42,798 bases of DNA from Actinomycetota bacterium. Lineage in GTDB: Bacteria; Actinomycetota; Actinomycetes; S36-B12; UBA5976. The stretch spans positions 1 through 42,798 of the forward strand of contig JBEGTB010000007.1 of the NCBI GenBank assembly GCA_041179585.1, in the 5' to 3' direction. This document shows, piece after piece, positions 2,255 through 35,884 of this stretch. A program made the translations under genes and the position numbers. Numbering within the stretch: the first letter of the stretch is position 1; every line of letters starts with the position of its first letter. Under the pieces are notes generated by a model that was given only the letters and a program-made list of their open reading frames with translations, ran no database searches and was not told the DNA's origin.

Positions 2255-3904
2255 TTACTTATCTGACTTGTACCAATCAACATATTCAGGGGCAAGTGGT
2301 TGCTTACCTTGAATGATGTCTGCAGCCTTTTCAGCAACCATCATTACTGGTGCATAAAGGTTTGCATTGGTTACATAAGGAAATACTGAAGCATCCACAA
2401 CACGAAGACCCTCAACGCCATAAACTTTCATAGTTTCTGGATCGATAACTGCCATGTCGTCTTTACCCATCTTGGCTGTGCAGGATGGATGGTAGGCGGT
2501 TTCTGCGTCTTTGCGAACCCAGTCAAGGATTTCTTCAGGTGTTTGGACACTCGGTCCTGGACTAATTTCACCATCGCTGTATTCATCAAAAGCTGATTGT
2601 TTAAGGATGTTACGGGTGACTTGAATCGCTTCTACCCATTCGCGGCGATCCTGATCAGTTGAAAGGTAATTAAACAGAATTGATGGCTTAGCTTTTGGAT
2701 CTTTGCTAACGATTTCGATTCGACCACGTGCATCTGAATACATTGGTCCAACGTGAACTTGGTAACCATGCCCTTGTTCGATACCGGTACCGTCATAACG
2801 AACGGCAATAGGTAAGAAGTGATACATCAGATTCGGATACTTAACTTCGTTATTAGATCTAGCAAAGCCACCACCTTCAAAGTGGTTTGTTGCACCTGGT
2901 CCCTTGCGAGCAAATAACCAAGCAGCCCCAATAAATGGTCGCTTCCAAACTTTAAGGTTTGGATTCATCGTGATTGGTTTCTTGCAAGCGTGCTGAATGT
3001 AAACCTCTAGGTGGTCTTGTAGGTTTTGGCCAACACCAGGAAGGTCTTTAACAACTGGAATACCTAAGCGATTAAGTAATCCCGATGGACCGATACCTGA
3101 AAGCTGCAAAACTTGCGGCGTATTAATCGCACCACCACAAAGAATTGTTTCGTGTCCGCGATATTCAACAATCTTCTTGCCAACGCGAACTTCAACGCCA
3201 ACAGCCTTGTCACCTTCAAAAATAACTTTATTAACTTGGTGACGAGTCTTGATCGTTAGGTTCTTGCGGCCTTTAACTGGGTGCAGGTAAGCACGAGCTG
3301 ACGACCATCGACGACCTTTCTTGACATTCTTATCAAAAGGTCCAAAGCCTTCTTGTTTGTAACCATTGACATCGTCAGTTCGAGTGAAACCGGCTTGAAC
3401 AGCAGCATCAAAGAATGCTTTGAAAAGGGGATTCTTAGCTGGTCCTTTTTCTAGGTAAAGCGGACCGCTATGACCACGAAATACTTTGTCATTAGGAACG
3501 CCAGTAGCGTTTTCCATTTTCTTGAAGTACGGAAGGCAGTGAGCGTAATCCCACTTTTCCATTCCTTTGTCGCTAGCCCAACGTTCGTAGTCCAAAGGAT
3601 TACCGCGCTGGAAAATCATGCCGTTGATTGATCCTGAGCCACCAAGTACTTTGCCGCGGCCATGGTAAACCTGACGGCCACCCATAAATGGTTCCGGATC
3701 TGTTTTATACATCCAGTCATAAAACCTGTTACCGATTGGGAAAGTTAGGGCCGCTGGCATGTGGATGTAAACATCCCAGATTGAATCTTTGCGCCCAGCC
3801 TCAAGCACTAGAACTTCGTTATCTGGATTCTCAGATAGCCGATTTCCTAGAACACTTCCGGCTGAACCGCCACCAATAATTATGTAGTCATAAATCTTGT
3901 TCAT
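2255..3904 (-). CDS. betA: Choline dehydrogenase (GMC oxidoreductase)
   Basis: [14 protein letters not shown] motif, [29 protein letters not shown] and ETAYHPSCT; 549 aa; betaine gene context. Confidence 0.93.
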
Positions 3905-4753
3905 TTATAGTTCTCCAGCAGCTGTATCGACAACGTTTGCAACTAGCATCGCCCGGGTCATTGGACCTGTACCACCTGGCATAGGGGCGATGTGGCCAGC
4001 AACTTCGCTGCATGCTGGATCGATGTCACCTAGTAATCCAGCATCCGTTCGAGTAATGCCAACATCAAGTAGCGCAGCGCCCGGCTTGATCATGTCTGGC
4101 TTAATGAAGTGCGGAACACCAGCAGCAGCCACCACAATGTCAGCACGCTTGATGTGAGCGGCCATGTCTTTTGTACCGGTGTGACACAAAGTAACTGTGG
4201 CATTTTCACTACGGCGGGTAAGAAGTAATCCAAGTGGGCGACCAACTGTTACGCCGCGCCCAACAATACAAACTTCAGCGCCATCAAGATTTACGTCATA
4301 TGCGCGAAGCAATTCAACGATGCCACGAGGTGTACAAGGAAGAGGTGCTGGAACACCAAGAACTAAGCGACCAAGGTTTGTTGGATGCAGACCGTCAGCA
4401 TCTTTCTTTGGATCAATTGCTTCAAGAGCTGCATTAGAGTCAAGACCCTTCGGTAGTGGCAACTGAACAATGTAGCCAGTACATGCTGGATCTTCGTTGA
4501 GACGTTTGATTGCAGCCATTACATCTGCTTGCGTTGCATTTGCTGGCAGATCTTCGCGAACAGAAGTGATCCCAACTTCATGGCAGTCGCGGTGTTTTCC
4601 AGCCACATATGAGTGTGAACCTGGATCATCACCAACAAGGATGGTGCCAAGGCCAGGGGTAATACCTTTCGCCTTCAATTCTTCAACGCGCTTAGCCAGC
4701 TTGGCTTTAACTGCAGCAGCGGTTGCTTTACCATCCAGGATGATTGCGGACAT
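3905..4753 (-). CDS. folD: Bifunctional methylene-THF dehydrogenase / methenyl-THF cyclohydrolase
   Basis: ILDGK, YV.GK, VQLPLP, KDADGL, PCTP.G, VGRG.TVGRP and PGG.GPMT motifs; stop abuts the betA start. Confidence 0.97.
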
Positions 4754-4805
4754 GCCTCTAACCTTCTGTTTTGTTTAATCCAATAATTTAAATTATTTGG
4801 CTTAT

Positions 4806-5411
4806 CTAAAGATACTCAACTGTGGCGTCAGTCAGGGCTGCCCATAGATGCTCTGCAAAAGAACTGCGAACAAACAGGATGTAGCAGTCTGTGCAGCAGT
4901 ACCACATTATGACCGGGGTACGGAACATAATGCCTTGGCTGCAACTATCAATGCCGAAATTCTTTTTGCGTAGATCTTGTTCCCAAACGTGCTCAAGAAC
5001 TTCAACTGATTTTGGACCAGAAACTTCAAGTTTGGTTCTCTGGGCACTTATGTCAACTAGTGAGATGTGATGAATTGCACGCACGTGCTCCAAGAGCTCA
5101 GATGCATCTGCTGTTCCAGTGAGTAACCATTGGTCAGGTCCAAGACATAATGCAATGATGCCTTTTTGATCTTTTTCATATTCTGGCTGTCCCATGCACG
5201 AGGCATTCACTCTGGCAACTTTTCCAACTGTTGTCGGCAAAGTTAGCCCAAGGGCAGCATTCACAGCTGAGAATGCTGACGAATTTGGATCAACTCGAAG
5301 ATCCCACATCGGAGTGAATGGAACTTCATACATCCAAATTGGGTCACCCTGTTTGCCCCAAGTTGCGCCATTAAGCGGGCTCTTTGCGCCCTTTAATACT
5401 TTAACCGTCAC
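4806..5411 (-). CDS. soxG: Sarcosine oxidase subunit gamma
   Basis: LGPDQWL, VDISAQR and VRSSFA motifs; follows soxA. Start moved from the ORF-track 5432 to the in-frame GTG at 5411 because AAGGAGA (5421-5427) lies 9 nt upstream. Confidence 0.9.
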   Translation of the reverse strand: MTVKVLKGAKSPLNGATWGKQGDPIWMYEVPFTPMWDLRVDPNSSAFSAVNAALGLTLPTTVGKVARVNASCMGQPEYEKDQKGIIALCLGPDQWLLTGTADASELLEHVRAIHHISLVDISAQRTKLEVSGPKSVEVLEHVWEQDLRKKNFGIDSCSQGIMFRTPVIMWYCCTDCYILFVRSSFAEHLWAALTDATVEYL

Positions 5412-8082
5412 GACGTGTGTTCTCCTTGTCAAAGAAAAGCGGTTCAGTCACTTTTGCCATAATCACTTTTCCGCGAAGAGGTATTGCAACTTCCTCGCCG
5501 TGACGGGCTTGACCGTTAGCCAACATACCCATGGCAAATGATCTGCCAAGGGCTGCTGACATGTAAGAACTGGTTACATAACCAACGTGCTTAACTGGTG
5601 GCTTTTGGCCAGCATTGCTAGCTTCAACAACGTAAGCACCTTCTGGAATAACTTCTTGGCCATCAATTGGCATGAAACCAACTAATTGATGACGTCCAGC
5701 ACGAGCGGTATCGCTACGAGTAAACGAACGTTTGCCAATGAAATCTTTCTTCTTGGAAACAATCCAGTCCATACCAACATCCATCGGAGTTTGAGTTCCG
5801 TCAGTATCTTGGCCAAGGATCACATAACCCTTTTCAGCACGTAGTACGTGCATAGTTTCAGTTCCGTATGGCGCAATACCGAATTCTTTACCTTCGCGCA
5901 TTACTGCTTCCCAAATGTGGGCGCCATACCAAGCTTCAACGTTGATTTCGTAAGCTAATTCGCCGCTGAAAGAAATACGAGCGATGCGAGCGGGAATGCC
6001 AGCAACATCAGCGTATTTATTTTCCATGAAACCAAATGCTTCGTTTGAGGCATCAAGTCCTGGTGCAAGTTTGGCAATTAAGTTACGTGACTTAGGGCCA
6101 ACGATTGCAACAGTTGAAATGTGTTCTGTTACTGATGTGCAGTAAACCTTTAGGTCAGGCCATTCGGTGTAAAGCCATTCTTCTAACCAGTCCAATACTT
6201 TGGCAGCGCCACCAGTTGTTGTGGTCATTAAGAAATGATTTTCCGCAAGACGTGTTGTAACACCGTCATCAAAGACCATTCCGTCAACACCACACATAAA
6301 GCCATAACGGCTTTGGCCAACCTTTAGCGAGCTAAACATGTTGGTGTAAACGCGGTCTAGGAATTCAGCTGCATCAGGTCCTTGGATATCGATCTTTCCA
6401 AGTGTTGATGCATCCATCACACCTACGCCATCACGAACCGCAGCGCATTCACGTAGAACTGCAGCATGCAAGTCTTCCTTGCCCTTAGGGAAAAACCAAG
6501 GACGTTTCCATTGGCCGACATCTTCCATCGGCGCGCCTGCTGATTCATGCAGAGCATGAATTGGTGTGCGACGAACAGGATCAGCTAACTTTCCACGTTC
6601 GCGGCCAGCAAGAGATGCAAATGGAACTGGAACAAAAGGTGAGCGGAAGGTGAGTGAACCAATTTCATCTGGCTGCTTACCAAGTGCTGCGCCAATTAGA
6701 CCCATGGTGATAGTTCCGCTGGTCTTACCTTGATCATGCGCCGTACCGATTGCGGTGTAACGCTTTACGTGTTCAATACTTTGCATACCCGCTTTTACTG
6801 CACGACGAACATCACGCAATGTTGCATCGCGCTGGAAATCAACGAATGCATCGGGTGCTTGAGCATCACTTTGCTGTGGACCAAAGAAGATTGCCGGGGA
6901 ATCGTCGCCACCAAAGTCACCGGCCACCATGCCAACAGCAGAGACCCACTTATTTTCTAGATCGTGGTAATCAAAGCAAGCCAAAAGTGAATTCCACTTT
7001 GGTTTCACACCAATGTAAGTACCTAGATGAACTGTAGGAGTCCAGCCGCCAGATACAGCCACTAAGTCAGTATCAATACATGTTGTTTCGGTACCATCAA
7101 GGTTGCCAATTTCAACACACTTAACGGTCTTTTTCTTTGGCTTCAGTTCTGCATCAACTGCAGTCTTGCCGTTCATGATTGTGATACCTAGCGCTTTAGC
7201 GGCCTCGACCGATGGACCAGATGCGCTTTGGCGACAATCTGCAATTGCTAGAACTTCTACGCCAGCATTGTGCAGGCGAACTGCGTCGCGGTAACCCTGG
7301 TTATCAACTGTCACAACAACTGCGGTCTTAAACACATCAACACCATCACGGGCCACGTAAGTAGCTGCAGCGTGCGAAAGCATGATGCCTGGAAGATCGT
7401 TATTCGCAAACACAAGATGACGTTGGTAAGCACCGGTTGCCAAAATCGTTCTCTCAGCACGGAAATGCCAAGTGCGCATGCGTGCTTTCTTTTTGTGAAC
7501 TTCACTATCTAGATGATCGGTGCGACGTTCGCTTGCAACGCTGTAACCCTGGTCGTACAGACCATGAACAATTGTGCGCGGTAAGTAAGTCACATTTGGC
7601 ATATCAAGAACTGCAAGTAGATCTGCTGGAATATCTTGACCTAGGTGAACTAAATGACCACCTGGGCGATCTTGTTCATCGCAGATGACAACATCTTTGC
7701 CGGCGCGAGCTTGTTCACCAGCTGCTTTAAGGCCAGCAGTACCAGCACCAACTACTACAACATCCACGTGACGGTATTTCTTGTCATAACGTGACTTGTC
7801 CCGAGTATCTGCAAGATCGCCAACACCTGAAAGGGAGCGAGCAACTAAACCATCAGTGATTGGCAGAACTGTTGCTGGATACATTGGTTCGCCCGCACCT
7901 GAAACCACCTGCACAAGCGCATTGGCTTCTTCGTGGCCAAGTCCGATGATTCCTCTTGGTCGATCACGGTAAGCCGAATCAGTGAAGTGAACAATGCCAT
8001 TGCGAAGTAGGGCAGTGGCTAATGTGTCACCTTTGTGACCTTTGTATTTCTTGCCATCAAATTTAAATTTAACTTTACTCAT
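5401..8082 (-). CDS. soxA: Sarcosine oxidase subunit alpha
   Basis: FDG...GDTLATALL, GAGTAG dinucleotide fold, KRYT..G...DQGK, and GcvT-like C-terminal domain (DASTLGKI, RISFSGEL.YE, LRAEKG). Confidence 0.95.
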   Translation of the reverse strand: MSKVKFKFDGKKYKGHKGDTLATALLRNGIVHFTDSAYRDRPRGIIGLGHEEANALVQVVSGAGEPMYPATVLPITDGLVARSLSGVGDLADTRDKSRYDKKYRHVDVVVVGAGTAGLKAAGEQARAGKDVVICDEQDRPGGHLVHLGQDIPADLLAVLDMPNVTYLPRTIVHGLYDQGYSVASERRTDHLDSEVHKKKARMRTWHFRAERTILATGAYQRHLVFANNDLPGIMLSHAAATYVARDGVDVFKTAVVVTVDNQGYRDAVRLHNAGVEVLAIADCRQSASGPSVEAAKALGITIMNGKTAVDAELKPKKKTVKCVEIGNLDGTETTCIDTDLVAVSGGWTPTVHLGTYIGVKPKWNSLLACFDYHDLENKWVSAVGMVAGDFGGDDSPAIFFGPQQSDAQAPDAFVDFQRDATLRDVRRAVKAGMQSIEHVKRYTAIGTAHDQGKTSGTITMGLIGAALGKQPDEIGSLTFRSPFVPVPFASLAGRERGKLADPVRRTPIHALHESAGAPMEDVGQWKRPWFFPKGKEDLHAAVLRECAAVRDGVGVMDASTLGKIDIQGPDAAEFLDRVYTNMFSSLKVGQSRYGFMCGVDGMVFDDGVTTRLAENHFLMTTTTGGAAKVLDWLEEWLYTEWPDLKVYCTSVTEHISTVAIVGPKSRNLIAKLAPGLDASNEAFGFMENKYADVAGIPARIARISFSGELAYEINVEAWYGAHIWEAVMREGKEFGIAPYGTETMHVLRAEKGYVILGQDTDGTQTPMDVGMDWIVSKKKDFIGKRSFTRSDTARAGRHQLVGFMPIDGQEVIPEGAYVVEASNAGQKPPVKHVGYVTSSYMSAALGRSFAMGMLANGQARHGEEVAIPLRGKVIMAKVTEPLFFDKENTRRDG

Positions 8083-8360
8083 GCTGGCTTCTTAGGTTGT
8101 GGTTCGAATGGTTTATAGGTTGGTCCGAATTCATGGGTAATGGTGTTACGCCAAACATTGAACCAGCGACGGCAGCCTGCACTATGAACCCATCGTTCAG
8201 CGTGCCAGCCTTTTGGATTAGCGCGGAAGAAAACATACTTACCCCATTGCTCATCGCTAATTAATTCGCGTTCTTGTGGGTATTCAACGCCAGCTTCATG
8301 GCCGTAGTGAAATTCGGTTTCATCTCTTGGACCACACCAAGGACATGGAATATGTAACAT
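8079..8360 (-). CDS. soxD: Sarcosine oxidase subunit delta
   Basis: CPWCGPR.E.EF and ERW.H..GCRRWF zinc-binding signature; 93 aa between soxB and soxA. Confidence 0.96.
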   Translation of the reverse strand: MLHIPCPWCGPRDETEFHYGHEAGVEYPQERELISDEQWGKYVFFRANPKGWHAERWVHSAGCRRWFNVWRNTITHEFGPTYKPFEPQPKKPA

Positions 8361-8372: not shown

Positions 8373-9608
8373 TTAGTGAGCCACGCCGGCTGCGCCGTGC
8401 TCGTCGATTAGATGGCCAGTAGTGAAACGCTCTAAGGTGTAACCCTTATTTAGTTCGTGTGGGCTACCAGTTGCAATGGTGTGGGCCATAACCCAACCAG
8501 ATCCTGGTGTTCCCTTGAAACCACCAGTACCACAACCACAGTTCAGGTAAAGGTTTTCAACCGGTGTTAAGCCGATAATGGGCGAAGCATCAGGGGTTGT
8601 ATCAACAATGCCACCCCAAGTGCGAAGTAGATGTGCCCGTTCAAAAATTGGGAACAGTTCAACTGCAGCAGATAGTTGGTGTTCAATCACATGGAATCCA
8701 CCGCGCTGGGCGTATGAGTTGTAAGCATCAGTACCAGCACCCATTACTAATTCACCTTTATGTGCTTGGCTGACATAAACGTGAACCATGCCAGACATGA
8801 TTACGGTGTCAAGAACTTGTTCAAGTAGTTCTGAAACAAGTGCCTGCAATGGACGAGATTGAACTGGAATCTTGAAGCCAGCCATTTCAGCAAGCACCGA
8901 AGAGTGACCAGCGCCAACTAGCGCAACTTTGTTTGCTAAAACATCACCTTGGTTTGTTTCAACACCAACAACGCGGCCATCTTGAACTTTAATTCCAGTT
9001 ACTTCACAGTTTTGAATGATGTCAACACCCATGTCACCAGCAGCCTTGGCATAACCCCATGCAACCCAGTCGTGTTTAGCGATACCACCACGTGGTTGGT
9101 AAGTAGCGCCCATAACTGGGTAGCGGATGTCCTCGCTGATGTTAACTATCGGTGCAATTTTTTTAACTTCTTTTGGTGTCAGCCATTCACTATCGATGTC
9201 AGCAACACCGTTTGCGTAGTAGTTACGCATCTTGGTGCGCACATCGCTAACGCTGTGGGCAAGAGTCATCACGCCGCGCTGTGAGAAGAACATCTCATAG
9301 CCGACATCTTCTTGCAGGCCTTCCCATAGTTTTAGGGAATGTTCGTAAATACCCTCTGACTCATCCCAAAGGTAATTTGAACGAATGATTGTGGTGTTAC
9401 GAGCCATGTTGCCACCAGCTAGCCAACCCTTTTCAAGCACAGCAATATTTGTCATGCCGTGAAGTTTGGCTAGGTAGTAAGCAGTAGCTAGGCCGTGGCC
9501 ACCACCGCCAATGATGATTGCATCGTATGACTTCTTTGGTGCTTTATGCGCCCAAAGAAAATCTGGATGCTCAGGTAATTCAACTGTTCGTCTGCGAGTA
9601 ATCGACAT
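8373..9608 (-). CDS. soxB: Sarcosine oxidase subunit beta
   Basis: [38 protein letters not shown] and C-terminal HGAAGVAH. Confidence 0.96.
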
Positions 9609-12217: not shown

Positions 12218-13180
12218 CTACTTAACCCAACCATCGGCTGTTGCCTGATTGGCAGCGATCCACTTCTTAGCAGCTTCTTCAGGTGTCATTCCACCTTCAA
12301 TGTCAGCAGCTACACCGTTTTGATCGTCGTTAGTCCATTTGAAGTTCTTAATAATGCGAGTGAACGGATCATTTGCATCCATAAGTTTCTTTGAAGCTAA
12401 CTTAATCAGTGGTGATGAAGGGTAGTCAGTTAGACCACTTGCTTCGGCAGTATCTGTCCAGTCGTTTGCTGGGAAATTAACACGAGCCAAAGCAACCTTT
12501 GCAAGGAAGTTTTGTGGTTCGTAGAAGTATCCCAATGCTGGAGTCTTGTCTGCAGCAGCTTTGGTGAACACGTCAATTAGCGCTTGTTCTGAGCCAGTTG
12601 AAATGATTGTGAAGTTAAGGCCATTGGCTTCAACCATTTTTTCACCGATTGTGGTGTATCCCGGAGGACCTTCGTACCAAGCACCCTTGCCCTTTGATTC
12701 GTCAGTGACGAATAGGTCAGCGTACTTGTTTAGGTTCGCAGAATCTGTGATGTCTGGATATTCTTCAGCCATCCATGCTGGTACATACATACCAATAAGA
12801 CCGACGTTTCCGTTGTCGCCAACTTCAACTACAGCGCCACGGTCAACCCAGTCTTGCCAACGGCCGCCGCCCCAGTCTTCGATTACTACGTCAATCGTTC
12901 CAGCTTCCATGGCATCGTAGGTTACGCCTGCTTCTTCCAAGGTCACTTGTTCGATTGTGCAACCTGCTGCCTTAGCAACTTCAGTCACAACCTGTGCTGA
13001 CGCTGTGTAGCCAACCCAAGCATGCATTGCAATGCTGTAGGAACCACATGCTTCGGCAGCACCTGTTTCTGTAGTAGATGCAGCGTCATCAACGCCAGCT
13101 CCACCACATGCCGTTAAGGCAAGGCCTGCAACTGCAGTTAATACTGCAAACTTGAAGCCCTTTCCTTGTTTCCGGACCAT
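12218..13180 (-). CDS. proX: Glycine betaine/choline ABC transporter substrate-binding lipoprotein (OpuAC/ProX family)
   Basis: Lipobox ALTAC; G.IDV.IEDW, YVP, YFYEP and AAKKWI motifs; aromatic residues suited to a quaternary-amine box. Confidence 0.85.
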   Translation of the reverse strand: MVRKQGKGFKFAVLTAVAGLALTACGGAGVDDAASTTETGAAEACGSYSIAMHAWVGYTASAQVVTEVAKAAGCTIEQVTLEEAGVTYDAMEAGTIDVVIEDWGGGRWQDWVDRGAVVEVGDNGNVGLIGMYVPAWMAEEYPDITDSANLNKYADLFVTDESKGKGAWYEGPPGYTTIGEKMVEANGLNFTIISTGSEQALIDVFTKAAADKTPALGYFYEPQNFLAKVALARVNFPANDWTDTAEASGLTDYPSSPLIKLASKKLMDANDPFTRIIKNFKWTNDDQNGVAADIEGGMTPEEAAKKWIAANQATADGWVK

Positions 13181-21855: not shown

Positions 21856-21871
21856 TGGAACAGGTGTTCCA
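21856..21871. promoter_or_regulatory. Palindromic operator in the mtgB / IclR-2 divergent region
   Basis: TGGAACA-GG-TGTTCCA perfect inverted repeat matching the known IclR motif class TGRAACA-N1-2-TGTTYCA; directly after TTGACG (21824) ... TACTAT (21849). Confidence 0.8.
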
Positions 21872-24648: not shown

Positions 24649-24661
24649 GAAAGGGAGCACT

Positions 24662-25513: not shown

Positions 25514-25560
25514 TCAAGGCAATTAAACTTTCTTAAGACAATCTTTGAACGAAGGATATT

Positions 25561-27423: not shown

Positions 27424-28025
27424 CAAACACCAAGGGGAATGTTGCAGTGATTGCTTGTGGTGCGCTGGCATCACACGTGCACGAGATTGCAGCTAGAAAT
27501 CACTGGGATTTACATGTTGAACCAGTTAATCCGTTATTGCACAACAGGCCAGAAGGTATCGCACCTGAAGTTGAAAAGTTAGTTAACGAACTTCAGGGCC
27601 AGCATCAAAAAGTGGCTATTGCATATGCAGACTGTGGAACTTATGGCGAACTGGACAAAGTTTGTGACAAGTATTCAGTTGAGCGTTTGGCTGGCGAACA
27701 TTGTTATGACGTATTTGCCACCGCTGAAAAAATGCGTGAGGAATTTGCCAAGGAGCCTGGCACTTTTGTTTTGACAGATTATTTAGTTAAGTCATTTCGC
27801 CGTAGCGTGATGAAAGAAATGGGACTTGAGAAATACCCAGAACTACGGGATGACTATTTCCATTCTTATAAGCGCATAATGTGGTTAGCCCAGCACCAAA
27901 CTGAAGAATTAACCCAAGCAGCAAATGAAGCCGCTGAACTACTTGGCCTGCCGCTTGAAATAGTTCAAGTGGGGGACCAATACTTAGAAGAACAACTAGT
28001 AGCCCTGATCGGGGAGTCAAAGTGA
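27420..28025 (+). CDS. DUF1638 family protein
   Basis: IACGAL, LHN.P, YADCGT, HCYD.F and GTF.LTD motifs; GTGA overlaps on both sides; the family commonly accompanies RACE genes. Confidence 0.8.
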   Translation: MTNTKGNVAVIACGALASHVHEIAARNHWDLHVEPVNPLLHNRPEGIAPEVEKLVNELQGQHQKVAIAYADCGTYGELDKVCDKYSVERLAGEHCYDVFATAEKMREEFAKEPGTFVLTDYLVKSFRRSVMKEMGLEKYPELRDDYFHSYKRIMWLAQHQTEELTQAANEAAELLGLPLEIVQVGDQYLEEQLVALIGESK

Positions 28026-28483
28026 CCCAATTCGTAGTTGATGACTTAACTGCAGAACTTGAACAGTTCCGCGGTGACAATTTTGCAGTGCTTCGGGCAT
28101 TGCAAAAGACTCAAGAGGTCCTTGGCTTTGTTCCAGATTCAGCAATTGATGTTGTGGCAAAGGTTTGTAATGTGTCTCGCGCTGAAGTTTATGGCGTGTT
28201 CACTTTCTATAGCGATTTCAAATCAATTCCACCTGCAAAATGCATCGTGAAAGTTTGCGTAGCTGAGGCATGTCAAGCAAATGGCAGTCGCGAACTAATC
28301 GAAGAGCTTCACAAAAAAGGTTTTGATGTTCATAAAGGCACCAAACAAGGCGATGTTCAGATGGAACAGACTTTCTGCTTAGGTAACTGTGCACTTGGCC
28401 CAGCAGCGCTTATTAATGGCAAGCCAGTTGCCAGAGCCACAGCAAAATCACTTATTGCCAAAGCAAATGAGGAAGCCCGATGA
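28022..28483 (+). CDS. fdsG: NAD-dependent formate dehydrogenase gamma subunit (NuoE-like, 2Fe-2S)
   Basis: SRAEVYGV.TFY, C.AEACQA.G and FCLGNCALGP motifs. Confidence 0.9.
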   Translation: MTQFVVDDLTAELEQFRGDNFAVLRALQKTQEVLGFVPDSAIDVVAKVCNVSRAEVYGVFTFYSDFKSIPPAKCIVKVCVAEACQANGSRELIEELHKKGFDVHKGTKQGDVQMEQTFCLGNCALGPAALINGKPVARATAKSLIAKANEEAR

Positions 28484-29979
28484 AGGTATTTGTTCCAGGT
28501 GACTCAACTGCACTTTCTGTCGGTGCAGATGAAGTTGCAGATGCATTAGCAAAGGCTGGCGCAGAAGTTGTCCGTACCGGCTCTCGCGGTATGTTCTGGC
28601 TTGAACCACTAGTTGAAGTTCAAACAGATGCGGGCAGAGTTGGTTATGCAAACGTTGAACCAAGTGATGCTAAAGATTTACTAAATGGCAAACTAACGAA
28701 GAAATCAATTGGTGTAGTTGACGAATACGACTGGATTAAAAAACAACAGCGCGTAACATTTGCTCGCGTTGGCATCATTAATCCAGTTTCAGTTGATGAT
28801 TATGAAGCACACGGCGGCTTAATTGGTTTACGAAAAGCACTTTCACTTCCTTCAGAACAAATTGTCGAAGAAGTAACAGAGTCTGGCCTTCGTGGTCGAG
28901 GTGGCGCGGGATTCCCAGCAGGTATTAAGTGGAAAACCGTATTAGGTGCGACCGCAGATCAAAAATATGTTTGCTGTAACGCTGATGAAGGCGATAGTGG
29001 AACATTTGCTGATCGCATGCTCATGGAAGGCGATCCACTAACTCTAGTTGAAGGCATGATTATTGCTGGTATTGCAGTTGGCGCAACTAAAGGTTTAATT
29101 TATTGCCGCTCTGAATACCCGCATGCAATTGCTGTTCTAAATAAAGCCATTGAAAATGCATATGCAGCAGGTGTTCTTGGTAAATCAGTTTGTGGTTCAC
29201 ACTTCGCATTTGATCTAGAAGTTCGAAGTGGTGCTGGTTCTTATGTTTGCGGTGAAGAAACTGCAATGCTTGAAAGCCTTGAAGGAAAGCGCGGCATGAT
29301 TCGTCCAAAGCCGCCAATTCCAGCACTTAGTGGTCTTTATGGAAAACCAACTGTCATTAATAACGTAATGACTTTGGCAGCAGTGCCGATGATCATGGCA
29401 AATGGCGCAAAGGCTTACCAAGAAATTGGTGTTGAACGATCACGCGGAACTCAAGTTTTCCAATTAGCAGGAAACATCGCTAAAGGTGGAATTGTTGAAA
29501 CTGGATTTGGTATCACCCTTGGTGAACTAGTTGATGGTTTTGGCGGAGGCACAAATAGCGGTCGCCCGATTAAGACAGTTCAAATCGGCGGGCCGCTTGG
29601 CGCTTACCTAGATAAAAATTCATGGGATGTACCGATGGCATATGAATCACTTGCAGCAGCTGGCGGCATGCTTGGCCATGGTGGTGTTGTTGTTTTTGAT
29701 GACACCGTAAACATGGCTGCCCAGGCAAGATTTGCCATGGAATTCTGTGCCGAAGAATCTTGTGGCAAGTGCACACCATGCCGTATCGGCTCAACCCGTG
29801 GGGTTGAAGTCATCGACAAAATTGTGGCTGGTGAAAACCAAGCCGAAAACCTTGAATTACTTGAAGACCTTTGCGAAGTTATGACTGACGGTTCACTATG
29901 TGCAATGGGCGGGTTAACGCCACTTCCAGTGCGTAGCGCGCTTAAGTTATATCCAGCAGACTTTGGATTAAGGAGATAA
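28480..29979 (+). CDS. fdsB: NAD-dependent formate dehydrogenase beta subunit (NuoF-like, FMN/4Fe-4S)
   Basis: GSRG.FWLEPLVEV, SGLRGRGGAGFP, CNADEGDSGT, GAGSYVCGEET and ESCGKCTPCR...SLC motifs. Confidence 0.93.
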   Translation: MKVFVPGDSTALSVGADEVADALAKAGAEVVRTGSRGMFWLEPLVEVQTDAGRVGYANVEPSDAKDLLNGKLTKKSIGVVDEYDWIKKQQRVTFARVGIINPVSVDDYEAHGGLIGLRKALSLPSEQIVEEVTESGLRGRGGAGFPAGIKWKTVLGATADQKYVCCNADEGDSGTFADRMLMEGDPLTLVEGMIIAGIAVGATKGLIYCRSEYPHAIAVLNKAIENAYAAGVLGKSVCGSHFAFDLEVRSGAGSYVCGEETAMLESLEGKRGMIRPKPPIPALSGLYGKPTVINNVMTLAAVPMIMANGAKAYQEIGVERSRGTQVFQLAGNIAKGGIVETGFGITLGELVDGFGGGTNSGRPIKTVQIGGPLGAYLDKNSWDVPMAYESLAAAGGMLGHGGVVVFDDTVNMAAQARFAMEFCAEESCGKCTPCRIGSTRGVEVIDKIVAGENQAENLELLEDLCEVMTDGSLCAMGGLTPLPVRSALKLYPADFGLRR

Positions 29980-29981: not shown

Positions 29982-32831
29982 ATGACCTTGTTATCTGATC
30001 CTCGTGGCTTATCGCCAATCCGTGATGGCATTGGTGAACCAGATTTTGGTACGCCAAAGTCCACTTCAGATGTGACCGTCACTCTAACCATTGATGGCTC
30101 ACCAGTTTCAGTTCCAGCTGGAACATCAATCATGCGCGCAGCTGGTGAATCTGGTTGTTCGATTCCCAAACTTTGTGCAACTGACTCTCTTGAACCATTT
30201 GGTTCATGCCGCATGTGTTTAGTCGAAATTGATGGTCGCAAGGGAACACCTGCTTCATGTACAACTCCGGTTGAAGAGGGAATGGTTGTTCGCACCCAGA
30301 CTGCAAAGCTGGGCAAACTTCGTCGCAATGTGATGGAACTTTATATTTCTGATCATCCGCTTGAATGTTTAACTTGCGCTGCAAATGGTGACTGTGAACT
30401 TCAGGATATGGCTGGTGTGGTTGGTCTACGCGATGTTCGCTACGGATACGAAGGTGAAAATCACCTTGGCGCAGTTAAAGACCAGAGCAACCCTTACTTT
30501 GATTTTGATAGCAGCAAGTGCATCGTTTGTAATCGTTGTGTTCGCGCCTGCGATCAGATCCAAGGAACACTTGCCTTAACCATCGAAGGCCGAGGCTTTA
30601 ATTCAAAAGTAAGCCCAGGCGGACTTAATTTCTTATCAAGTGAATGTGTTTCTTGTGGTGCTTGCGTTCAGGCATGTCCAACCGGAACTCTAGAAGAAAA
30701 AAGCGTTATTGAACTTGGTATGCCAACTCGCACAGTTCAAACAACCTGTGCTTACTGTGGTGTTGGCTGTACTTTCAACGCTGAACTTCGCGGCGATGAA
30801 TTAGTTCGTATGGTGCCTGCCAAAACTGGTGGCGCTAATGAAGGCCATTCATGCGTTAAAGGCCGTTTCGCTTTTGGCTACGCCAGCCACAAAGACCGCA
30901 TCCTTTCACCAATGATTCGCGAAAAAATCACTGATGAATGGACTGAAGTCTCTTGGGATGAAGCCATTACATACGCTGCCACCAAGTTCAAAGAGATTCA
31001 GGCTAAATACGGTGACAACTCAATTGGTGGCGTGACTTCATCTCGCTGTACAAACGAAGAAATCTTCACCGTACAAAAAATGATCCGCACAGCTTTCGGT
31101 AACAACAACGTTGATACCTGTGCTCGCGTATGTCACTCACCAACAGGTTTTGGATTAAGTTCAACATTTGGAACTTCAGCTGGTACCCAAGACTTCAAGT
31201 CTGTTGGCAAATCTGATGTGATCTTGCTAATTGGTGCTAATCCAACAGATGCCCACCCAGTATTTGGTTCACGCCTAAAGCGTCGCCTTCGTCAAGGTGC
31301 AAAGCTAATCGTTGTTGACCCACGCAAGATTGATCTTGTTGAATCAGCACACGTTAAGGCTAATCACCATCTACAACTTCAACCAGGCACAAACGTTGCA
31401 GTAATCAATGCACTTGCGCACGTAATTGCGACTGAAGGTTTGGCTGATAAGAACTTCATCGCTGAACGCTGCGATAACGAAGCATTTGATCGCTGGATGA
31501 AATTTATTTCTCTTCCAGAAAATAGCCCTGAAGTTGTTGAAGCACAGTCCGGAGTTCCTGCCGAAGAACTTCGCAAGGCCGCTCGCTTGTTTGCCACAAG
31601 TGGAAACGGTGCAATTTATTACGGTCTAGGTGTTACCGAACACAGCCAAGGTTCAACCATGGTTATGGGCATGGCAAACCTTGCTATGGCAACTGGAAAC
31701 ATCGGTCGCGAGGGTGTTGGAGTTAACCCGCTTCGTGGACAGAACAACGTTCAGGGATCTTGCGACATGGGGTCTTTCCCACACGAACTTTCTGGTTACC
31801 GTCACGTTTCAGATGATGCAGTTCGCGAACAGTTTGAAACATTATGGGATGTAAAACTTCTTCCTGAACCAGGTATGCGCATTCCAAACATGCTGGATAA
31901 CGCAATTTCTGGTGAATTCCGTGGCATGTTCGTGCATGGCGAGGACATCGCTCAATCAGATCCAAATACTAAGCACGTCATGGCCGCTCTTGAAGCAATG
32001 GATCTAGTTGTTGTTCAAGACTTGTTCATCAACGAAACAGCTAAGTTTGCTCACGTATTTTTCCCAGGAACTTCGTTCCTTGAAAAAGATGGCACATTCA
32101 CCAACGCTGAACGTCGCATTAACCGCGTCCGTCCAGTAATGGCACCTAAGAATGGCAAACAAGAATGGCAAATCATTTCTGAGCTAGCAACTGCAATGGG
32201 TTACCCAATGCATTATGACAATGCTGCTCAAATCATGGATGAAATTGCAGCGATCACCCCAACATTTAAGAATGTCAGCTTTGAACTTCTTGATCGCGTT
32301 GGCAGCTTGCAGTGGCCAGTAAATGATGCAGCTCCGCAAGGAACACCAATCATGCACGTTAATGGTTTTGTTCGCGGTAAGGGCTTATTTGTTGAGACAC
32401 CATTTGTACCAACAGAAGAACGTGCCAATCGCAAGTTCCCACTGCTATTAACAACAGGGCGCATTCTTAGCCAATACAACGTTGGTGCACAGACTCGTCG
32501 CACAGCGAATAGCACTTGGCATCAAGAAGATGTTTTAGAAATTCACGAATCCGACGCGCAAATGCGCGGAATCGTCGATGGCCAGAAAGTTGCGATTTCA
32601 AGTCGTATCGGTGAGACAGTTATGCGAGCAGAGGTTTCGGCTCGCGTTCCAGCTGGCGTTGTATACACAACTTTCCATCATCCGATAAGCGGCGCGAATG
32701 TGATTACAACTGAATTCTCTGACTGGGCAACCAACTGTCCAGAATACAAAGTGACCGCAGTTGAAATCAGACCAGCTGATTCAAGCCAGGATGCAACCAA
32801 TTCTCTTGATGATGTCTTGATGAAGGCTTAA
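29982..32831 (+). CDS. fdsA: NAD-dependent formate dehydrogenase alpha subunit (Mo-bis-PGD, Cys ligand)
   Basis: IPKLC..GSCRMC and multiple Fe-S motifs, CAYCGVGC, active-site DTCARVCH (Cys, not Sec), LRGQNNVQG and CPEYKV. Confidence 0.95.
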   Translation: MTLLSDPRGLSPIRDGIGEPDFGTPKSTSDVTVTLTIDGSPVSVPAGTSIMRAAGESGCSIPKLCATDSLEPFGSCRMCLVEIDGRKGTPASCTTPVEEGMVVRTQTAKLGKLRRNVMELYISDHPLECLTCAANGDCELQDMAGVVGLRDVRYGYEGENHLGAVKDQSNPYFDFDSSKCIVCNRCVRACDQIQGTLALTIEGRGFNSKVSPGGLNFLSSECVSCGACVQACPTGTLEEKSVIELGMPTRTVQTTCAYCGVGCTFNAELRGDELVRMVPAKTGGANEGHSCVKGRFAFGYASHKDRILSPMIREKITDEWTEVSWDEAITYAATKFKEIQAKYGDNSIGGVTSSRCTNEEIFTVQKMIRTAFGNNNVDTCARVCHSPTGFGLSSTFGTSAGTQDFKSVGKSDVILLIGANPTDAHPVFGSRLKRRLRQGAKLIVVDPRKIDLVESAHVKANHHLQLQPGTNVAVINALAHVIATEGLADKNFIAERCDNEAFDRWMKFISLPENSPEVVEAQSGVPAEELRKAARLFATSGNGAIYYGLGVTEHSQGSTMVMGMANLAMATGNIGREGVGVNPLRGQNNVQGSCDMGSFPHELSGYRHVSDDAVREQFETLWDVKLLPEPGMRIPNMLDNAISGEFRGMFVHGEDIAQSDPNTKHVMAALEAMDLVVVQDLFINETAKFAHVFFPGTSFLEKDGTFTNAERRINRVRPVMAPKNGKQEWQIISELATAMGYPMHYDNAAQIMDEIAAITPTFKNVSFELLDRVGSLQWPVNDAAPQGTPIMHVNGFVRGKGLFVETPFVPTEERANRKFPLLLTTGRILSQYNVGAQTRRTANSTWHQEDVLEIHESDAQMRGIVDGQKVAISSRIGETVMRAEVSARVPAGVVYTTFHHPISGANVITTEFSDWATNCPEYKVTAVEIRPADSSQDATNSLDDVLMKA

Positions 32832-32837: not shown

Positions 32838-33053
32838 ATGGATGTAGCGAAACTAAAGATGATGGTTAATCAAATTGACCAGAACATTCCTTTTGCTGGC
32901 GTTAAATCTGAAGTGATTGCAACACATCTGAAGAAATTCTGGACACCACAAATGCGAGCAGATATTTTTCATGATGTTCAGGCCAGTCCTGAGAGCTATA
33001 GTGCTGATGTTCGTGAAGCTGTTACCAAACTTCATCAAGAAGCCAACGCTTAA
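32838..33053 (+). CDS. fdsD: Formate dehydrogenase delta subunit
   Basis: KL..MVNQI...IATHLKKFW.P.MR signature; 71 aa directly after fdsA. Confidence 0.88.
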   Translation: MDVAKLKMMVNQIDQNIPFAGVKSEVIATHLKKFWTPQMRADIFHDVQASPESYSADVREAVTKLHQEANA

Positions 33054-33057: not shown

Positions 33058-34221
33058 CTACCAAGGAAGTCTAAGTAAGCGAACTGTGCTGGTCCCTGGA
33101 ATCTTTCCAGGTTTTACAACGGCCAAAGCATCTGCTGAAACTAAGCCACGTAACATCGCTGATCCACGAAATTCAGTCGGACTAACTTTGCCGTCAGTAA
33201 AACTAACTGGAATCACGCGAGTTCGATCCGCTTCTGATTCTTGCTTAAGTGAAGAAATTTCTAGCTCACTAAGTGGTTGACCTAGGAGTCGATTCATTGC
33301 TGGAGCCACAATAGTTAAAAAACTAACCAGCGCTGCAAGTGGATTACCAGGAAGACTTGCTACAAGTTGGCCACTTGGAAGTTTTGCTAAAACACTTGGA
33401 TGGCCCGGGCGCATATTTATTTCATCAATTAAAAACTCAGCGTTTAAATCACGTAGCGCACTTCTAATGTAATCAAAGTCGCCATGAGCCGTTCCACCTG
33501 TTGTGATGATTATTGGTGCAAGGCAAGAAACAATCGCATTTCTAGTCTCGGATGCATCATCGAGCACCCTAGTTAGTTGCCCAATTTGCCCACCAATGTG
33601 ATTAATCCAGGATGGAATTTGAATGGATAGTGAGTCTCGAATTTGGCCCGGGCCAGCGTCACCTGAGCTGATTAATTCATCGCCGGTAATCAATACATCA
33701 ATGTATGGGATTTCGCGAACATTTATTTGATCGATGCTTGCACTAGCAGCCAGACCTGCTGCAGCTGGAGTAATTTTTTGACCGGCAGCCAAAATAACTT
33801 CGCCAGCTTTAGCTTCATCACCTGGGACGCGGATGTGTTTACCCATAGGAACTGGAACTTTGCTTGCAATATCGCCATCAAAAATAATTGCATCTTCATT
33901 TGGTATTACAAAAGAACAGGCTGGGGGAATGTGTGCACCAGTGCTAACTCGAAGCGCATCACCTGAAGCTAATTCAAACGCAGCTTGGCCTGCGCGAACT
34001 TCACCCATGATCTTCCATGGACCAGAGCCTGCAACTGCATAGCCATCCATCATCGCTGTGTGAGCAGGTGGCAAATCTGATTTCGCAACTAAATCAACAG
34101 CACAAGTACGGCCAATTGAATGAAGAAGTTCGATTGTCTGAATACCTACCGGTGAGACATTGTCATATGAAATTTGGCGGGCGTCATCCCATTCCACATT
34201 GTGGTTCGCCAAATTAGCCAT
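33058..34221 (-). CDS. moeA: Molybdopterin molybdotransferase
   Basis: AMMDGYAV, TGA..P, TGDEL, TTGG...G.FD, MRPGHP and LPGNP motifs. Confidence 0.92.
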   Translation of the reverse strand: MANLANHNVEWDDARQISYDNVSPVGIQTIELLHSIGRTCAVDLVAKSDLPPAHTAMMDGYAVAGSGPWKIMGEVRAGQAAFELASGDALRVSTGAHIPPACSFVIPNEDAIIFDGDIASKVPVPMGKHIRVPGDEAKAGEVILAAGQKITPAAAGLAASASIDQINVREIPYIDVLITGDELISSGDAGPGQIRDSLSIQIPSWINHIGGQIGQLTRVLDDASETRNAIVSCLAPIIITTGGTAHGDFDYIRSALRDLNAEFLIDEINMRPGHPSVLAKLPSGQLVASLPGNPLAALVSFLTIVAPAMNRLLGQPLSELEISSLKQESEADRTRVIPVSFTDGKVSPTEFRGSAMLRGLVSADALAVVKPGKIPGTSTVRLLRLPW

Positions 34222-34260
34222 GGGATTAATCTACCTGCAAACGTGTGCGATGCTTTATTT

Positions 34261-35073
34261 GTGCAAAATATGCAACTATCTCAGATTGATTCAATAGTTG
34301 TTGCCGGCGGTAAGGCCACTCGTATTGGCGGCATTGATAAAGCAATGCTTCCCCTAGGTCTTAATCAAAAAACTTTATTAGCTTCAGTTGTTGCCAGTTG
34401 CCCTGGAAAAGTTATTGTTGCAGGCTCCAATCGACCAGAGATAAATGGCGTTACCTGGGTGGATGACTTAAGTGCTGATGGGGGACCAGCTGCGGGAATT
34501 TGGGCGGCTCTTACCCAAATTAATTCTGAATATGTATTCATCAGTGCAGGTGATCAACGAATAAATAGCGATCAAGTAAATCAGATTTGCTTGGCTGCCC
34601 TTGGCCATGATGGCGCTTGGGCTATTAGGGAAAATGGCCAAGGCCAACCACTTCTGGCCTGTGTTAAATCGCGACTAATTAAAGATTTACTGCAGGAGTC
34701 AAAAGGTGTTAACGCTTCACCTTTACGATTAATGCAACAGTTAAATATGGTTGAAGTGAAAGTGGCAACTAGCGAAGTATTAGATATTGATACTTGGGCT
34801 GATGCCATCAATGCGGTTAAGGAATCTGGAATGAGTGAAGTAACTCCTGTTTGGTTAAAACAAGTTGCCGCAACTTTAGGTATTCCTGAAACTGAAATAC
34901 CAGTTAATGCACTTCTTGATCTAACCCGCGATGTTGCCCACAATGTTGAGCGCAAATCTGCACCTCTAACCACATTCTTAATTGGCCTTGCTGCCGGAAA
35001 AACTGGAGCAAGTGAAAAAGAATTAATTGAAAAAGTTGAGCAGGCAATAAAAGACTGGACCCCAAGTGAATAA
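34261..35073 (+). CDS. mobA: Molybdenum cofactor guanylyltransferase fused to a C-terminal small domain (DUF6457-like)
   Basis: VAGG.ATR.GG.DK, GP.AG, QPL and DIDTW motifs followed by W.......LG......LLDLTRDVAH.V.R..APLTTFL.G. The start is likely GTG 34261 or ATG 34270, since the ORF-track start 34174 overlaps moeA. Confidence 0.82.
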   Translation: MQNMQLSQIDSIVVAGGKATRIGGIDKAMLPLGLNQKTLLASVVASCPGKVIVAGSNRPEINGVTWVDDLSADGGPAAGIWAALTQINSEYVFISAGDQRINSDQVNQICLAALGHDGAWAIRENGQGQPLLACVKSRLIKDLLQESKGVNASPLRLMQQLNMVEVKVATSEVLDIDTWADAINAVKESGMSEVTPVWLKQVAATLGIPETEIPVNALLDLTRDVAHNVERKSAPLTTFLIGLAAGKTGASEKELIEKVEQAIKDWTPSE

Positions 35074-35884
35074 TCAGGAACCAGTCTCGGCGACAGCCAG
35101 AATTACCGTTAAAAAAACAGGTAAAGATTCACCAGTTACCGATTATGTGGTTGGCGAAGAGCCACTTGAAATTCGCCTGGAAACTGAAAGTGGTAAACAG
35201 CAATTAGCCGTAACCATGCGAACTCCGGGTAGCGACAATGAGCTTGGCGCAGGATTCTTGTGGTCAGAAGGACTACTTCGCACTCGCGATGACTTAATTG
35301 CAATCACATCTTGTAAAGATGCGGACTTAACTCCGCGTGAGCGCGAAAATATTATCGTTGCTCACGTTAAGCCTGGTACTCCAGCACTTAACCGAGTTCT
35401 TGATCGCAGATTCACAATTTCAAGTGCTTGTGGGGTTTGCGGTTCAACTCAAATAGATGATCTACGTGAACGCGGTTGCCAGAATGTTACCCCAGCAACT
35501 TTGCCAATCGAAAAGATGGTCACGCTTCCAGATTTAATGCGTCCACGCCAAAAGATATTTGAAAAAACTGGTGGCTTACATGCAGCTGGATTATTTGATC
35601 CCAATGGCAACTTAGTTATCGTTCGTGAAGATGTTGGCCGTCACAATGCAGTGGACAAAGTTGTTGGTTATGCGCTGATGAATAATCTAATTCCACTTAG
35701 TGGTTATACCCTTGCAATCTCTGGTCGCGGGGGATACGAAATTATTCAAAAAGCGATCAGTTCTGGAATTTCTGCAGTGGTTGCTGTTTCCGCGCCAACA
35801 TCATTGGCTGTTGAAACTGCAAAAGCTTTTGGCCTGACCTTACTTGGCTTTACTCGCCAAGGTCAGGCAACACATTACAACTAA
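35066..35884 (+). CDS. fdhD: Formate dehydrogenase accessory sulfurtransferase
   Basis: EEPLEIR, TMRTPG, SACGVCG, TGGLHAA, REDVGRHNAVDK and SAPT.LA motifs. Confidence 0.96.
   Translation: MNNQEPVSATARITVKKTGKDSPVTDYVVGEEPLEIRLETESGKQQLAVTMRTPGSDNELGAGFLWSEGLLRTRDDLIAITSCKDADLTPRERENIIVAHVKPGTPALNRVLDRRFTISSACGVCGSTQIDDLRERGCQNVTPATLPIEKMVTLPDLMRPRQKIFEKTGGLHAAGLFDPNGNLVIVREDVGRHNAVDKVVGYALMNNLIPLSGYTLAISGRGGYEIIQKAISSGISAVVAVSAPTSLAVETAKAFGLTLLGFTRQGQATHYN

Follow-up and report, generated by a model that had tools for sequence, protein, structure and literature searches.

Gene content and integrity of the locus

The window analysed here is a 42,798-nucleotide stretch of DNA (JBEGTB010000007.1) that makes up the whole of contig C7 of G000, a metagenome-assembled genome (MAG; GCA_041179585.1) of 101 contigs and 1.17 Mb that is 78% complete. 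At positions 2255-35884 the window carries contiguous, tightly packed genes with uninterrupted open reading frames (ORFs) and frequent 4-nt overlaps, which an earlier note, made from the sequence alone, had described as about 28 genes for one pathway, its regulation and its cofactors. The number is exactly 28, and comparisons with NCBIfam, Pfam and PDB matched every one of them to the family proposed for it (Table 1). The block includes genes for all four sarcosine oxidase subunits, in the order B-D-A-G, and for the gamma, beta, alpha and delta subunits of the formate dehydrogenase (FDH) FdsGBAD, together with FdhD; the FdsA frame has no in-frame stop, indicating an enzyme of the Cys type. We consider it likely that the block is a catabolic island for choline and glycine betaine (hereafter betaine) in an aerobic freshwater actinobacterium of reduced genome size, with relatives among Nanopelagicales MAGs.

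Considering that the window belongs to a MAG of 101 contigs, its arrangement could be an artefact of assembly or binning, that is, a chimeric contig mixing the genes of different organisms. The sister genome G063, which is 98% complete in 8 contigs, showed the identical order of the 28 genes with the same Orn/tRNA-His flank, and gene order and flanks recurred in three further loci (L003, L006 and L010). The GC content is even across the window (0.44-0.48), and 79-97% of the sequence words sampled from 18700-28000 were present in 20 sequencing runs from 11 studies. On the grounds of the synteny with G063, the even GC content and the multi-study read support, a chimera is hardly credible and was ruled out.

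The closest homologues of the MttB-family protein of the island, at 73-88% identity, come from MAGs labelled Actinobacteria, Actinomycetales, Nanopelagicales and Actinomycetota, which bears out the actinobacterial host named in the earlier note. The 20 sequencing runs were mostly labelled freshwater or aquatic metagenome, with one groundwater and one soil run among them. We compared G000 with four relatives (G055, G057, G061 and G063) and found COX1 and GcvP in all five genomes. The haem-copper oxidase and the glycine decarboxylase encoded in G000, the latter with the glycine cleavage genes outside the island, indicate an aerobe that is able to dispose of glycine.

Table 1. Island genes and other features of the window, with the family evidence for each (bit scores; cut-off, curated model threshold)
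Feature	Position	Strand	Evidence
BetA, choline dehydrogenase (choline to betaine aldehyde)	2255..3904	-	TIGR01810, 841.8 bits (cut-off 732.1)
FolD, methylene-tetrahydrofolate (THF) dehydrogenase/methenyl-THF cyclohydrolase	3905..4753	-	NF010789, 479.9 bits (cut-off 401)
SoxG, sarcosine oxidase gamma	4806..5432	-	TIGR01375, E 4e-25, under cut-off; position in soxBDAG
SoxA, sarcosine oxidase alpha, GcvT-like folate part	5401..8082	-	TIGR01372, 1033.1 bits, under cut-off 1164
SoxD, sarcosine oxidase delta	8079..8360	-	PF04267, 117 bits
SoxB, sarcosine oxidase beta	8373..9608	-	TIGR01373, 600.5 bits (cut-off 529.45)
Dimethylglycine (DMG) oxidase (DAO + GcvT-like folate domain), 808 aa	9610..12036	-	PDB 1pj5, E 7.8e-231, residues 3-807
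OpuAC-type binding protein, betaine/choline ABC importer	12218..13180	-	PF04069, 125.8 bits
Fused double ProW-type permease	13257..15230	-	TIGR03416 and NF008196, each matching two stretches
ProV-type importer ATPase	15227..16261	-	TIGR01186, 363.3 bits (cut-off 326.6)
BetB, betaine-aldehyde dehydrogenase	16264..17772	-	TIGR01804, 586.9 bits, under 668.6; best of 43 aldehyde dehydrogenase models
IclR-family regulator 1, ahead of the betB-importer block	17873..18652	-	NF045644 and TIGR02431 matches
Fhs, formate-THF ligase; 4-nt overlap with MttB gene	18704..20371	-	NF010030, 916.6 bits (cut-off 652)
MtgB-like non-pyrrolysine MttB-family methyltransferase, 479 aa	20368..21807	-	PF06253, 621.7 bits
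Palindrome TGGAACAGGTGTTCCA, divergent MttB/IclR2 promoter; candidate operator	21856..21871		Sole perfect match in the window
IclR-family regulator 2, opens plus-strand operon	21934..22689	+	TIGR02431, E 1.8e-38
MtgC-like corrinoid protein (B12 cap + B12-binding)	22686..23342	+	PF02607 and PF02310; NF047996 MtgC_2, 201.2 bits, under 370
MetV-like small subunit, 8 Cys within first 64 residues	23353..23736	+	PF12225, 85.3 bits
Divergent methylene-THF reductase (MTHFR; MetF2/MetVF type)	23737..24648	+	PF02219, 90.2 bits; solved MTHFRs only E ~1e-5
MtgD/MtgA-like pterin-binding methyl-THF:corrinoid methyltransferase	24662..25513	+	NF005719, 315.4 bits (cut-off 259); PF00809
RACo/RamA-like activase (2Fe-2S ferredoxin + ASKHA)	25561..27423	+	PF00111, PF17650, PF17651 and PF14574; NF040756 AcsV, 437.9 bits, under cut-off
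DUF1638 protein; 4-nt overlap with each neighbour	27420..28025	+	PF07796, 88.8 bits
FdsG, NAD-linked FDH gamma	28022..28483	+	NF004638, E 3.8e-40
FdsB (NuoF-like)	28480..29979	+	TIGR01959, E 4.2e-133
FdsA, molybdopterin catalytic subunit	29982..32831	+	TIGR01591, 893.7 bits (cut-off 666.25)
FdsD	32838..33053	+	PF11390, 43.4 bits
MoeA, molybdopterin molybdotransferase	33058..34221	-	NF007960, E 2.9e-56
MobA-like molybdenum cofactor (Moco) guanylyltransferase	34174..35073	+	TIGR02665, E 5.2e-15
FdhD, FDH sulfurtransferase	35066..35884	+	NF001943, 264.4 bits (cut-off 269, just missed); TIGR00129, 145.7 bits (cut-off 140.9)
tRNA-His, conserved right border of the variable locus	35902..35977	-	ARAGORN; adjoins Orn in G063 and G057 too

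Proposed route from choline to CO2

Gene content, order, conservation and co-occurrence are what we observed, and we assigned the chemical steps from family membership and context. An OpuA-type ABC importer would bring in choline or betaine, and BetA and BetB would convert choline to betaine. The MtgB-like MttB-family enzyme would then transfer one betaine methyl group to the Co(I) form of the MtgC-like corrinoid protein, leaving DMG, and the MtgD-like pterin-binding methyltransferase would pass this methyl group on to THF, while the ferredoxin-RACo activase and the DUF1638 protein would hold the cobalamin reduced. The MetV/MetF pair of the island is predicted to take methyl-THF to methylene-THF. 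DMG oxidase and SoxBDAG would use O2 to strip off the two remaining methyl groups, which would reach THF as methylene-THF, and FolD, Fhs (formyl-THF to formate plus ATP) and NAD-linked FdsGBAD would carry the one-carbon (C1) units to CO2. The remaining glycine would enter the glycine cleavage system, cobalamin would be imported rather than synthesised, and two IclR regulators would govern the locus, the second probably binding a conserved palindrome in the spacer that its gene shares with the MttB gene. The sequence from choline through betaine, DMG and sarcosine to glycine that the earlier note had put forward thus agrees with the families matched and with the presence of a haem-copper oxidase and a glycine decarboxylase, and every family expected for its C1 oxidation through MetVF, FolD, Fhs and FdsGBAD was matched. 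Its description of the route as the Wood-Ljungdahl methyl branch in reverse is fair as regards the enzymes, but the process is ordinary THF-linked C1 oxidation, already invoked in the marine work discussed below.

Two other identities were considered for steps of the route and rejected. The DAO + GcvT protein matched Arthrobacter DMG oxidase (1pj5, Table 1) far better than DMG dehydrogenase (4pab, 2.6e-105), and the latter identity was discarded. A betaine monooxygenase of the GbcAB type was rejected because no Rieske frame of the size expected of GbcA was found in G000, G061 or G063, where Rieske-domain frames measured 89-372 aa. Among the Rieske-domain frames checked in these three genomes, no catabolic betaine demethylase other than the MttB-family protein was seen.

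The 479-aa frame of the MttB-family protein contains no internal stops, consistent with a non-pyrrolysine member of PF06253, and is the single MttB paralogue in G000. It matched three non-pyrrolysine structures, namely 4yyc (3.1e-128), the D. hafniense MtgB entry 2qne (7.9e-122) and 9yce (4.9e-121), which was deposited under the name glycine betaine methyltransferase, whereas its match to the pyrrolysine-containing MttB trimethylamine enzyme 7xcl was merely 3.4e-38. The betaine pocket of MtgB from Desulfitobacterium hafniense (DhMtgB) is formed by Y97, R312, H348 and F356, according to Picking et al. 2026 (PMC13080624). With alignment positions counted by hand, the first three correspond to Y98, R312 and H348 of the window protein.

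Several points weigh against the catabolic reading. In the pocket, F356 is replaced by G356, so that the second cation-π aromatic is missing, and the F356L substitution in DhMtgB is reported to raise the Km several hundred-fold (PMC13080624). The curated NCBIfam cut-offs were missed by the MtgC, RamA/AcsV, SoxA, SoxG, BetB and Bhmt models. No electron acceptor for methyl-THF oxidation was evident, and textbook redox values make this oxidation energetically uphill with NAD+. The 78% completeness of G000 renders absences within that genome itself weak, and no RNA runs were listed among the sequencing runs that matched 18700-28000.

Y98, R312, H348, W352 and G356 were invariant in all 80 aligned sequences (the window protein and 79 actinobacterial homologues), and the same W...GG motif occurs in the 4yyc protein, which is proteobacterial and aerobic. 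We suggest that the invariant W352 may stand in for the lost aromatic side chain and that G356/W352 would be a betaine-pocket variant of aerobic lineages. With three contacts kept and one aromatic absent, a different substrate retains a small share of the probability: the enzyme could use a different acidic quaternary amine (such as proline betaine, carnitine or γ-butyrobetaine), with the conversion of betaine to DMG falling to a true betaine-homocysteine methyltransferase, namely a Bhmt-like protein encoded on contig C9. Such a reading would fit the invariant G356, the retention of R312 and H348 in relatives with other acidic substrates (PMC13080624), the name of the best NCBIfam model of the C9 protein (betaine-homocysteine S-methyltransferase) and the distance of the actinobacterial MttB group from its proteobacterial homologues (42-45% identity) and, to a similar degree as read from the alignment, from D. 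hafniense MtgB. The genomic context argues against it, since the MttB gene is placed between the betAB genes with the OpuA-type importer and the DMG oxidase gene. The same association was found in a survey of the 80 best actinobacterial loci, one genome per GTDB species, many of them on broken contigs with gene counts that are lower bounds: at least 70 of the 80 carried the corrinoid protein, MtgD and activase genes (hereafter the core) beside the MttB gene, and at least 44 of these 70 had betA or betB within 10 kb. The C9 protein scored 299.3 bits, below the cut-off of 338, with the Sinorhizobium meliloti-type 'Bhmt' as its best model, and proteins of this type, argued to lack the betaine-binding residues, have been renamed MtgE (Mausz et al. 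2025, PMC12478193). Homocysteine-coupled demethylation would in addition be unable to carry catabolic flux, and the aerobic 4yyc protein shares the motif. Taken together, we regard a substrate other than betaine as quite unlikely.

Among the five genomes compared, the MetVF-type MTHFR was found only in those with the island (G000, G061 and G063) and was absent from G057 and G055. A canonical MetF (254-285 bits) was encoded outside the locus in G061, G063, G057 and G055. The divergent island enzyme would be a second MetF dedicated to the oxidation of methyl-THF to methylene-THF.

The corrinoid core and methionine synthesis

Genetic and proteomic work on Ruegeria pomeroyi has established an aerobic betaine demethylation by MtgB (PF06253), MtgC and MtgD, and has shown that MtgC, MtgD and MtgE also form the methionine synthase (PMC12478193). 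We believe, with somewhat more confidence than doubt, that the corrinoid protein, MtgD, the activase and the MtgE-like C9 protein likewise constitute the only methionine synthase of the cell, a second role that would parallel the split enzyme known from Phaeobacter and Ruegeria and that the earlier note did not mention. Neither MetH nor MetE was found in G000 (78% complete), and none of its three frames with a B12-binding domain is of MetH length. Two stand-alone PF02574 proteins are encoded; one is MmuM-like and the other is the MtgE-like protein (G000:C9:987-1868, 293 aa; PF02574, 222.3 bits). The putative parts are thus separate, the PF02574 protein on C9 and the pterin-binding and B12-binding proteins in the window. 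A predicted complex of the MtgE-like and corrinoid proteins had a median score of 0.32 against a mark of 0.34, and all controls scored 0.00; we give this result no weight for or against the proposal. Of the B12-binding-domain frames in G000, the two outside the window (C96:612-947 and 12915-13181; 143 and 331 aa) may be mutase subunits.

To examine co-occurrence, we tabulated by hand 93 genomes of the family. MttB was present in 54, the corrinoid protein in 51, the MtgE-like protein in 52, a full or near-full MetH in 14 and MetE-like proteins (weak matches) in 3, and MetH overlapped with MttB, the corrinoid protein or the MtgE-like protein in a single genome, G046. Within the genus, 13 of 14 high-quality genomes encoded the corrinoid protein and the MtgE-like protein and no MetH, and the remaining one, G055, encoded MetH without either; MetE was found in none of the 40 genomes of the genus. 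This pattern of near mutual exclusion is what the published dual-function model would predict. In G046 (genus g6), a full MetH coexists with MttB, the corrinoid protein and the MtgE-like protein (C2:2345-4571, C35:245076-248591, C7:6217-7179), and the tblastn map of its locus showed the activase and corrinoid protein genes with no MtgD separating them.

The region from Orn/tRNA-His to FolD occurs in three states in the sister genomes. The full island is found in G000 and G063 and, split across contigs, in G072. A core-only state, with activase, MtgD and corrinoid protein next to FolD and without MttB, MetVF or FDH, is found in G057, G084 and G065. The region is empty in G055 and G080, both of which carry a full-length MetH, that of G055 adjoining the canonical MetF. 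FolD stays at the locus in G057, G084, G065, G055 and G080, even without the island. Since the full and core-only states differ by four interleaved changes, it is simpler to suppose that a full island was pared down to its housekeeping genes, and we suggest that the core-only state arose in this way.

The left flank of the island consists of a gene for a KefF-like NAD(P)H oxidoreductase (1657-2190, minus strand) and the 3′ part of a phosphoenolpyruvate carboxylase (PEPC) gene (3-1655, plus strand). Both are kept in G057, G055 and G080, and G084 and G065 have PEPC without KefF. On the right, a 132-aa ORF at 36688-37086 (minus strand), flanked by Orn and a gene for an ABC1-type kinase, had no NCBIfam or Pfam match.

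The persistence of the core without MttB, MetVF and FDH would also suit an assimilatory view, in which the corrinoid module is primarily a methionine synthase and the island assimilates methyl groups and nitrogen and clears excess osmolyte rather than yielding energy. Its products would be methionine and S-adenosylmethionine, serine and ammonium, with FDH and Fhs serving formate detoxification or C1 balance. Both oxidases, by what is known of their families, give electrons to O2 without conserving energy, and the methyl-THF made by MtgD would be directly usable by MtgE. Against this, the genes for the MetVF-type MTHFR, Fhs and the four-subunit FDH with its Moco genes are packed or overlapping with the corrinoid strand block, the MetVF-type enzyme tracks the island, and genes for FDH stand beside the module in G063, G072, L002, L003, L006, L010 and L051. 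Three methyl groups per betaine would far exceed the demand for methionine, and MetF2 was the most induced protein on N-osmolytes in the marine work (PMC12478193). We therefore consider an assimilatory island unlikely and favour energy-yielding catabolism, with methionine synthesis as a second role of the core.

The proposal of a split synthase itself faces counterevidence. The co-occurrence counts come from related, non-independent genomes, and under the thresholds applied 39 of the 93 genomes had no MetE and neither of the two systems, indicating that methionine auxotrophy is common in the group and could apply here. G057 carries the core, and DUF1638 was found nowhere in its genome, although DUF1638 is required for methionine synthesis in Phaeobacter inhibens (PMC5764234). 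In the five-genome comparison, DUF1638 was present in G000, G061 and G063 and not in G057 or G055; the requirement for it seems to vary among core carriers. The core-only genome G065 (L103 on contig C90, 1478-2077, and L102 on contig C36) has no MttB and carries a divergent DUF1638 gene, only 54% identical to that of the window, beside Orn. In favour of the split synthase, 4 of the 80 surveyed loci, all from Phycicoccus (L028, L031, L047 and L049), have an MtgE-like gene next to the module. This gene (~2800-4960; 52-56% identical) adjoins DUF1638 on the opposite strand.

The cofactor shared by the two proposed functions appears to be imported. No cobQ scored over the cut-off in any of the five genomes, and a cobalamin riboswitch lies on contig C8 upstream of BtuF- and BtuC-like transporter genes; acI strains have been reported to be B12 auxotrophs (PMC5301498), in agreement with import. 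The 'self-contained' island of the earlier note is therefore not upheld: B12 apparently comes from outside the cell, the glycine cleavage genes lie elsewhere in the genome, and the complete sister genomes have their canonical MetF outside the island.

Regulation, distribution and relation to known systems

The palindrome TGGAACAGGTGTTCCA lies 49 nt from the start codon of the MttB gene and 63 nt from the start of the gene for IclR regulator 2. In the 250 nt ahead of the MttB gene, 29 of 79 loci had an exact copy of the core motif GGAAC-N4-GTTCC and 52 had a copy with no more than one mismatch, whereas the rest of the same loci (1.42 Mb) contained no exact match and 36 one-mismatch matches. The extended consensus conserved upstream of the MttB gene is TGTGGAAC-N4-GTTCCACA. 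In 79 of 80 loci, the MttB gene had a gene for IclR regulator 2 as its neighbour, a count that may include cross-matches to paralogues. We propose that the palindrome is the operator of this regulator. In 13 of the 79 loci (L028, L049, L056, L058 and others), the best upstream match had 3-4 mismatches, and these loci may use another operator or a site further upstream. A second inverted repeat at 18642-18681 (17 nt, 94% complementary, 6-nt loop), just downstream of fhs and overlapping the start of IclR 1, may serve as a terminator or in autoregulation. Apart from the palindromes at 21858-21873 and 18642-18681, a repeat search of 17700-22000 yielded chiefly chance pairs. Between 17000 and 36500, promoter-like sites numbered 10 against a shuffle mean of 27.5, fewer than chance, and terminator-like sites were at chance level. 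At gathering thresholds, Rfam found no riboswitch in the window and two tRNAs only, indicating that no riboswitch controls the island itself.

The core module is widespread in Actinomycetota, cultured genera included: it was found in Nocardioides, Phycicoccus, Nostocoides jenkinsii, Asanoa and Pseudonocardia. Among the 80 surveyed loci, DUF1638 was present in at least 61, fhs in at least 19, MetV with MetF in at least 15, fdsA in at least 5, all from the closest relatives, and soxB in at least 4. In 300 evenly sampled Actinomycetota genomes (completeness at least 90%), an MttB-family match at E <= 1e-100 occurred in 36, and only 3 of these had an orthologue 67-70% identical to the window protein. 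Elsewhere in the family, the locus of G004 (genus g2; L093-L095) has the betaine-to-glycine genes and MetVF and no FDH or DUF1638, and that of G044 (genus g5; L096-L097) has no sox, DMG oxidase or FDH genes.

The closest known system is that of Ruegeria and Phaeobacter (PMC12478193, PMC5764234), which shares the PF06253 methyltransferase, the small corrinoid protein, the pterin-binding methyltransferase, the ferredoxin-DUF4445 activase, DUF1638, a second MetF and the stand-alone PF02574 module; most carriers likewise have no classical MetH. In R. pomeroyi, RamA and DUF1638 are co-induced, and in other Proteobacteria the genes for reactivation, C1 oxidation and later demethylation steps are often co-located (PMC12478193). 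Plasmid p1 of Paracoccus methylovorus carries the identical module in a matching order, with genes for an MttB protein, a B12-binding protein, DUF1638, an MTHFR-C-terminal-domain protein, MTHFR, a methyl-THF methyltransferase and an ASKHA protein, with the MTHFR-C-terminal-domain protein adjoining MTHFR as in the island module. The Ruegeria-type carriers are marine Proteobacteria with up to seven MttB paralogues, whereas the window genome has one and comes from an actinobacterium that, judged by the run labels, is likely of freshwater origin, and the MttB proteins are only 42-45% identical. The island also differs in bringing the choline-to-CO2 steps together in one 34-kb locus with FdsGBAD, Moco genes and an O2-dependent DMG oxidase, in its IclR regulators and conserved palindrome, and in that some sister genomes have the core without DUF1638.

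The anaerobic MtgB/MtgC/MtgA system of D. hafniense (2qne, 9yce) shares the fold family over the full length (E ~1e-121), the Y97/R312/H348 pocket, the corrinoid protein and the methyl-THF methyltransferase (PMC13080624). It has F356, whereas the window host is aerobic by its COX1 and has G356 with W352 nearby. With Arthrobacter and other aerobic Actinomycetota that degrade choline and betaine, the island shares a DMG oxidase of the 1pj5 type, SoxBDAG and BetA/BetB, but we assign the removal of the first methyl group to a B12 methyltransferase. D. hafniense reportedly leaves DMG as an end product, whereas the island would degrade it by oxidases. FolD, Fhs and FDH, working in the same direction with ATP and NADH gained from methyl groups, are common to the THF-linked C1 oxidation of roseobacters and methylotrophs, a route that SAR11 is also said to use. 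Here, the point of entry would be methyl-THF through an oxidative MetVF-type reductase, with the genes inside the betaine locus. The THF-linked route is the one invoked for the marine system (PMC12478193).

The earlier note knew of no characterised locus with the whole combination in actinobacteria. Aerobic MtgBCD with RamA, DUF1638, MetF2 and the DMG, sarcosine and C1 genes has been published for Proteobacteria (PMC12478193), and the core module is common in Actinomycetota (70 of the 80 best loci, cultured genera among them), so the system is not new in kind. We found no description of an actinobacterial or Nanopelagicales locus in the literature; the cited parts of PMC12478193 mention Actinomycetota solely as 5% of marine mtgC reads, and its Dataset S2 and Fig. 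4 may list actinobacterial genomes. Peatland Actinobacteriota have been reported to express methylamine methyltransferase genes (PMC10805028), and acI-A7 alone of four acI genomes to possess FDH, Moco synthesis and a betaine/proline transporter (PMC5301498). Worth keeping are the consolidation of a near-complete route in a reduced freshwater genome, the comparative evidence for methionine synthesis by the core, and the conserved candidate operator; this operator and the G356/W352 pocket variant add small details that are new.

The island offers a testable route for the use of betaine and choline in an abundant type of freshwater actinobacterium, and it predicts that betaine use and methionine synthesis both rely on imported B12. 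The three locus states resemble a natural deletion series that separates housekeeping genes (corrinoid protein, MtgD, activase and FolD) from a set that the comparison of loci marks as betaine-specific (MttB, MetVF, the oxidases, Fhs and FDH), and genetics is possible in the cultured genera that carry the core (Nocardioides, Phycicoccus, Asanoa and Pseudonocardia). For genome-reduced freshwater Actinomycetota that do not make B12 in general, we give even chances to the view that a split, RACo-reactivated MtgC/MtgD/MtgE is the sole methionine synthase, with the choline/betaine pathway as a removable add-on to the same corrinoid protein. If true, the split-synthase reading would extend the betaine-methionine link of marine proteobacteria to another phylum and biome, and two central functions of abundant lake bacteria would hang on B12 supplied by others, with the IclR palindrome as the switch.

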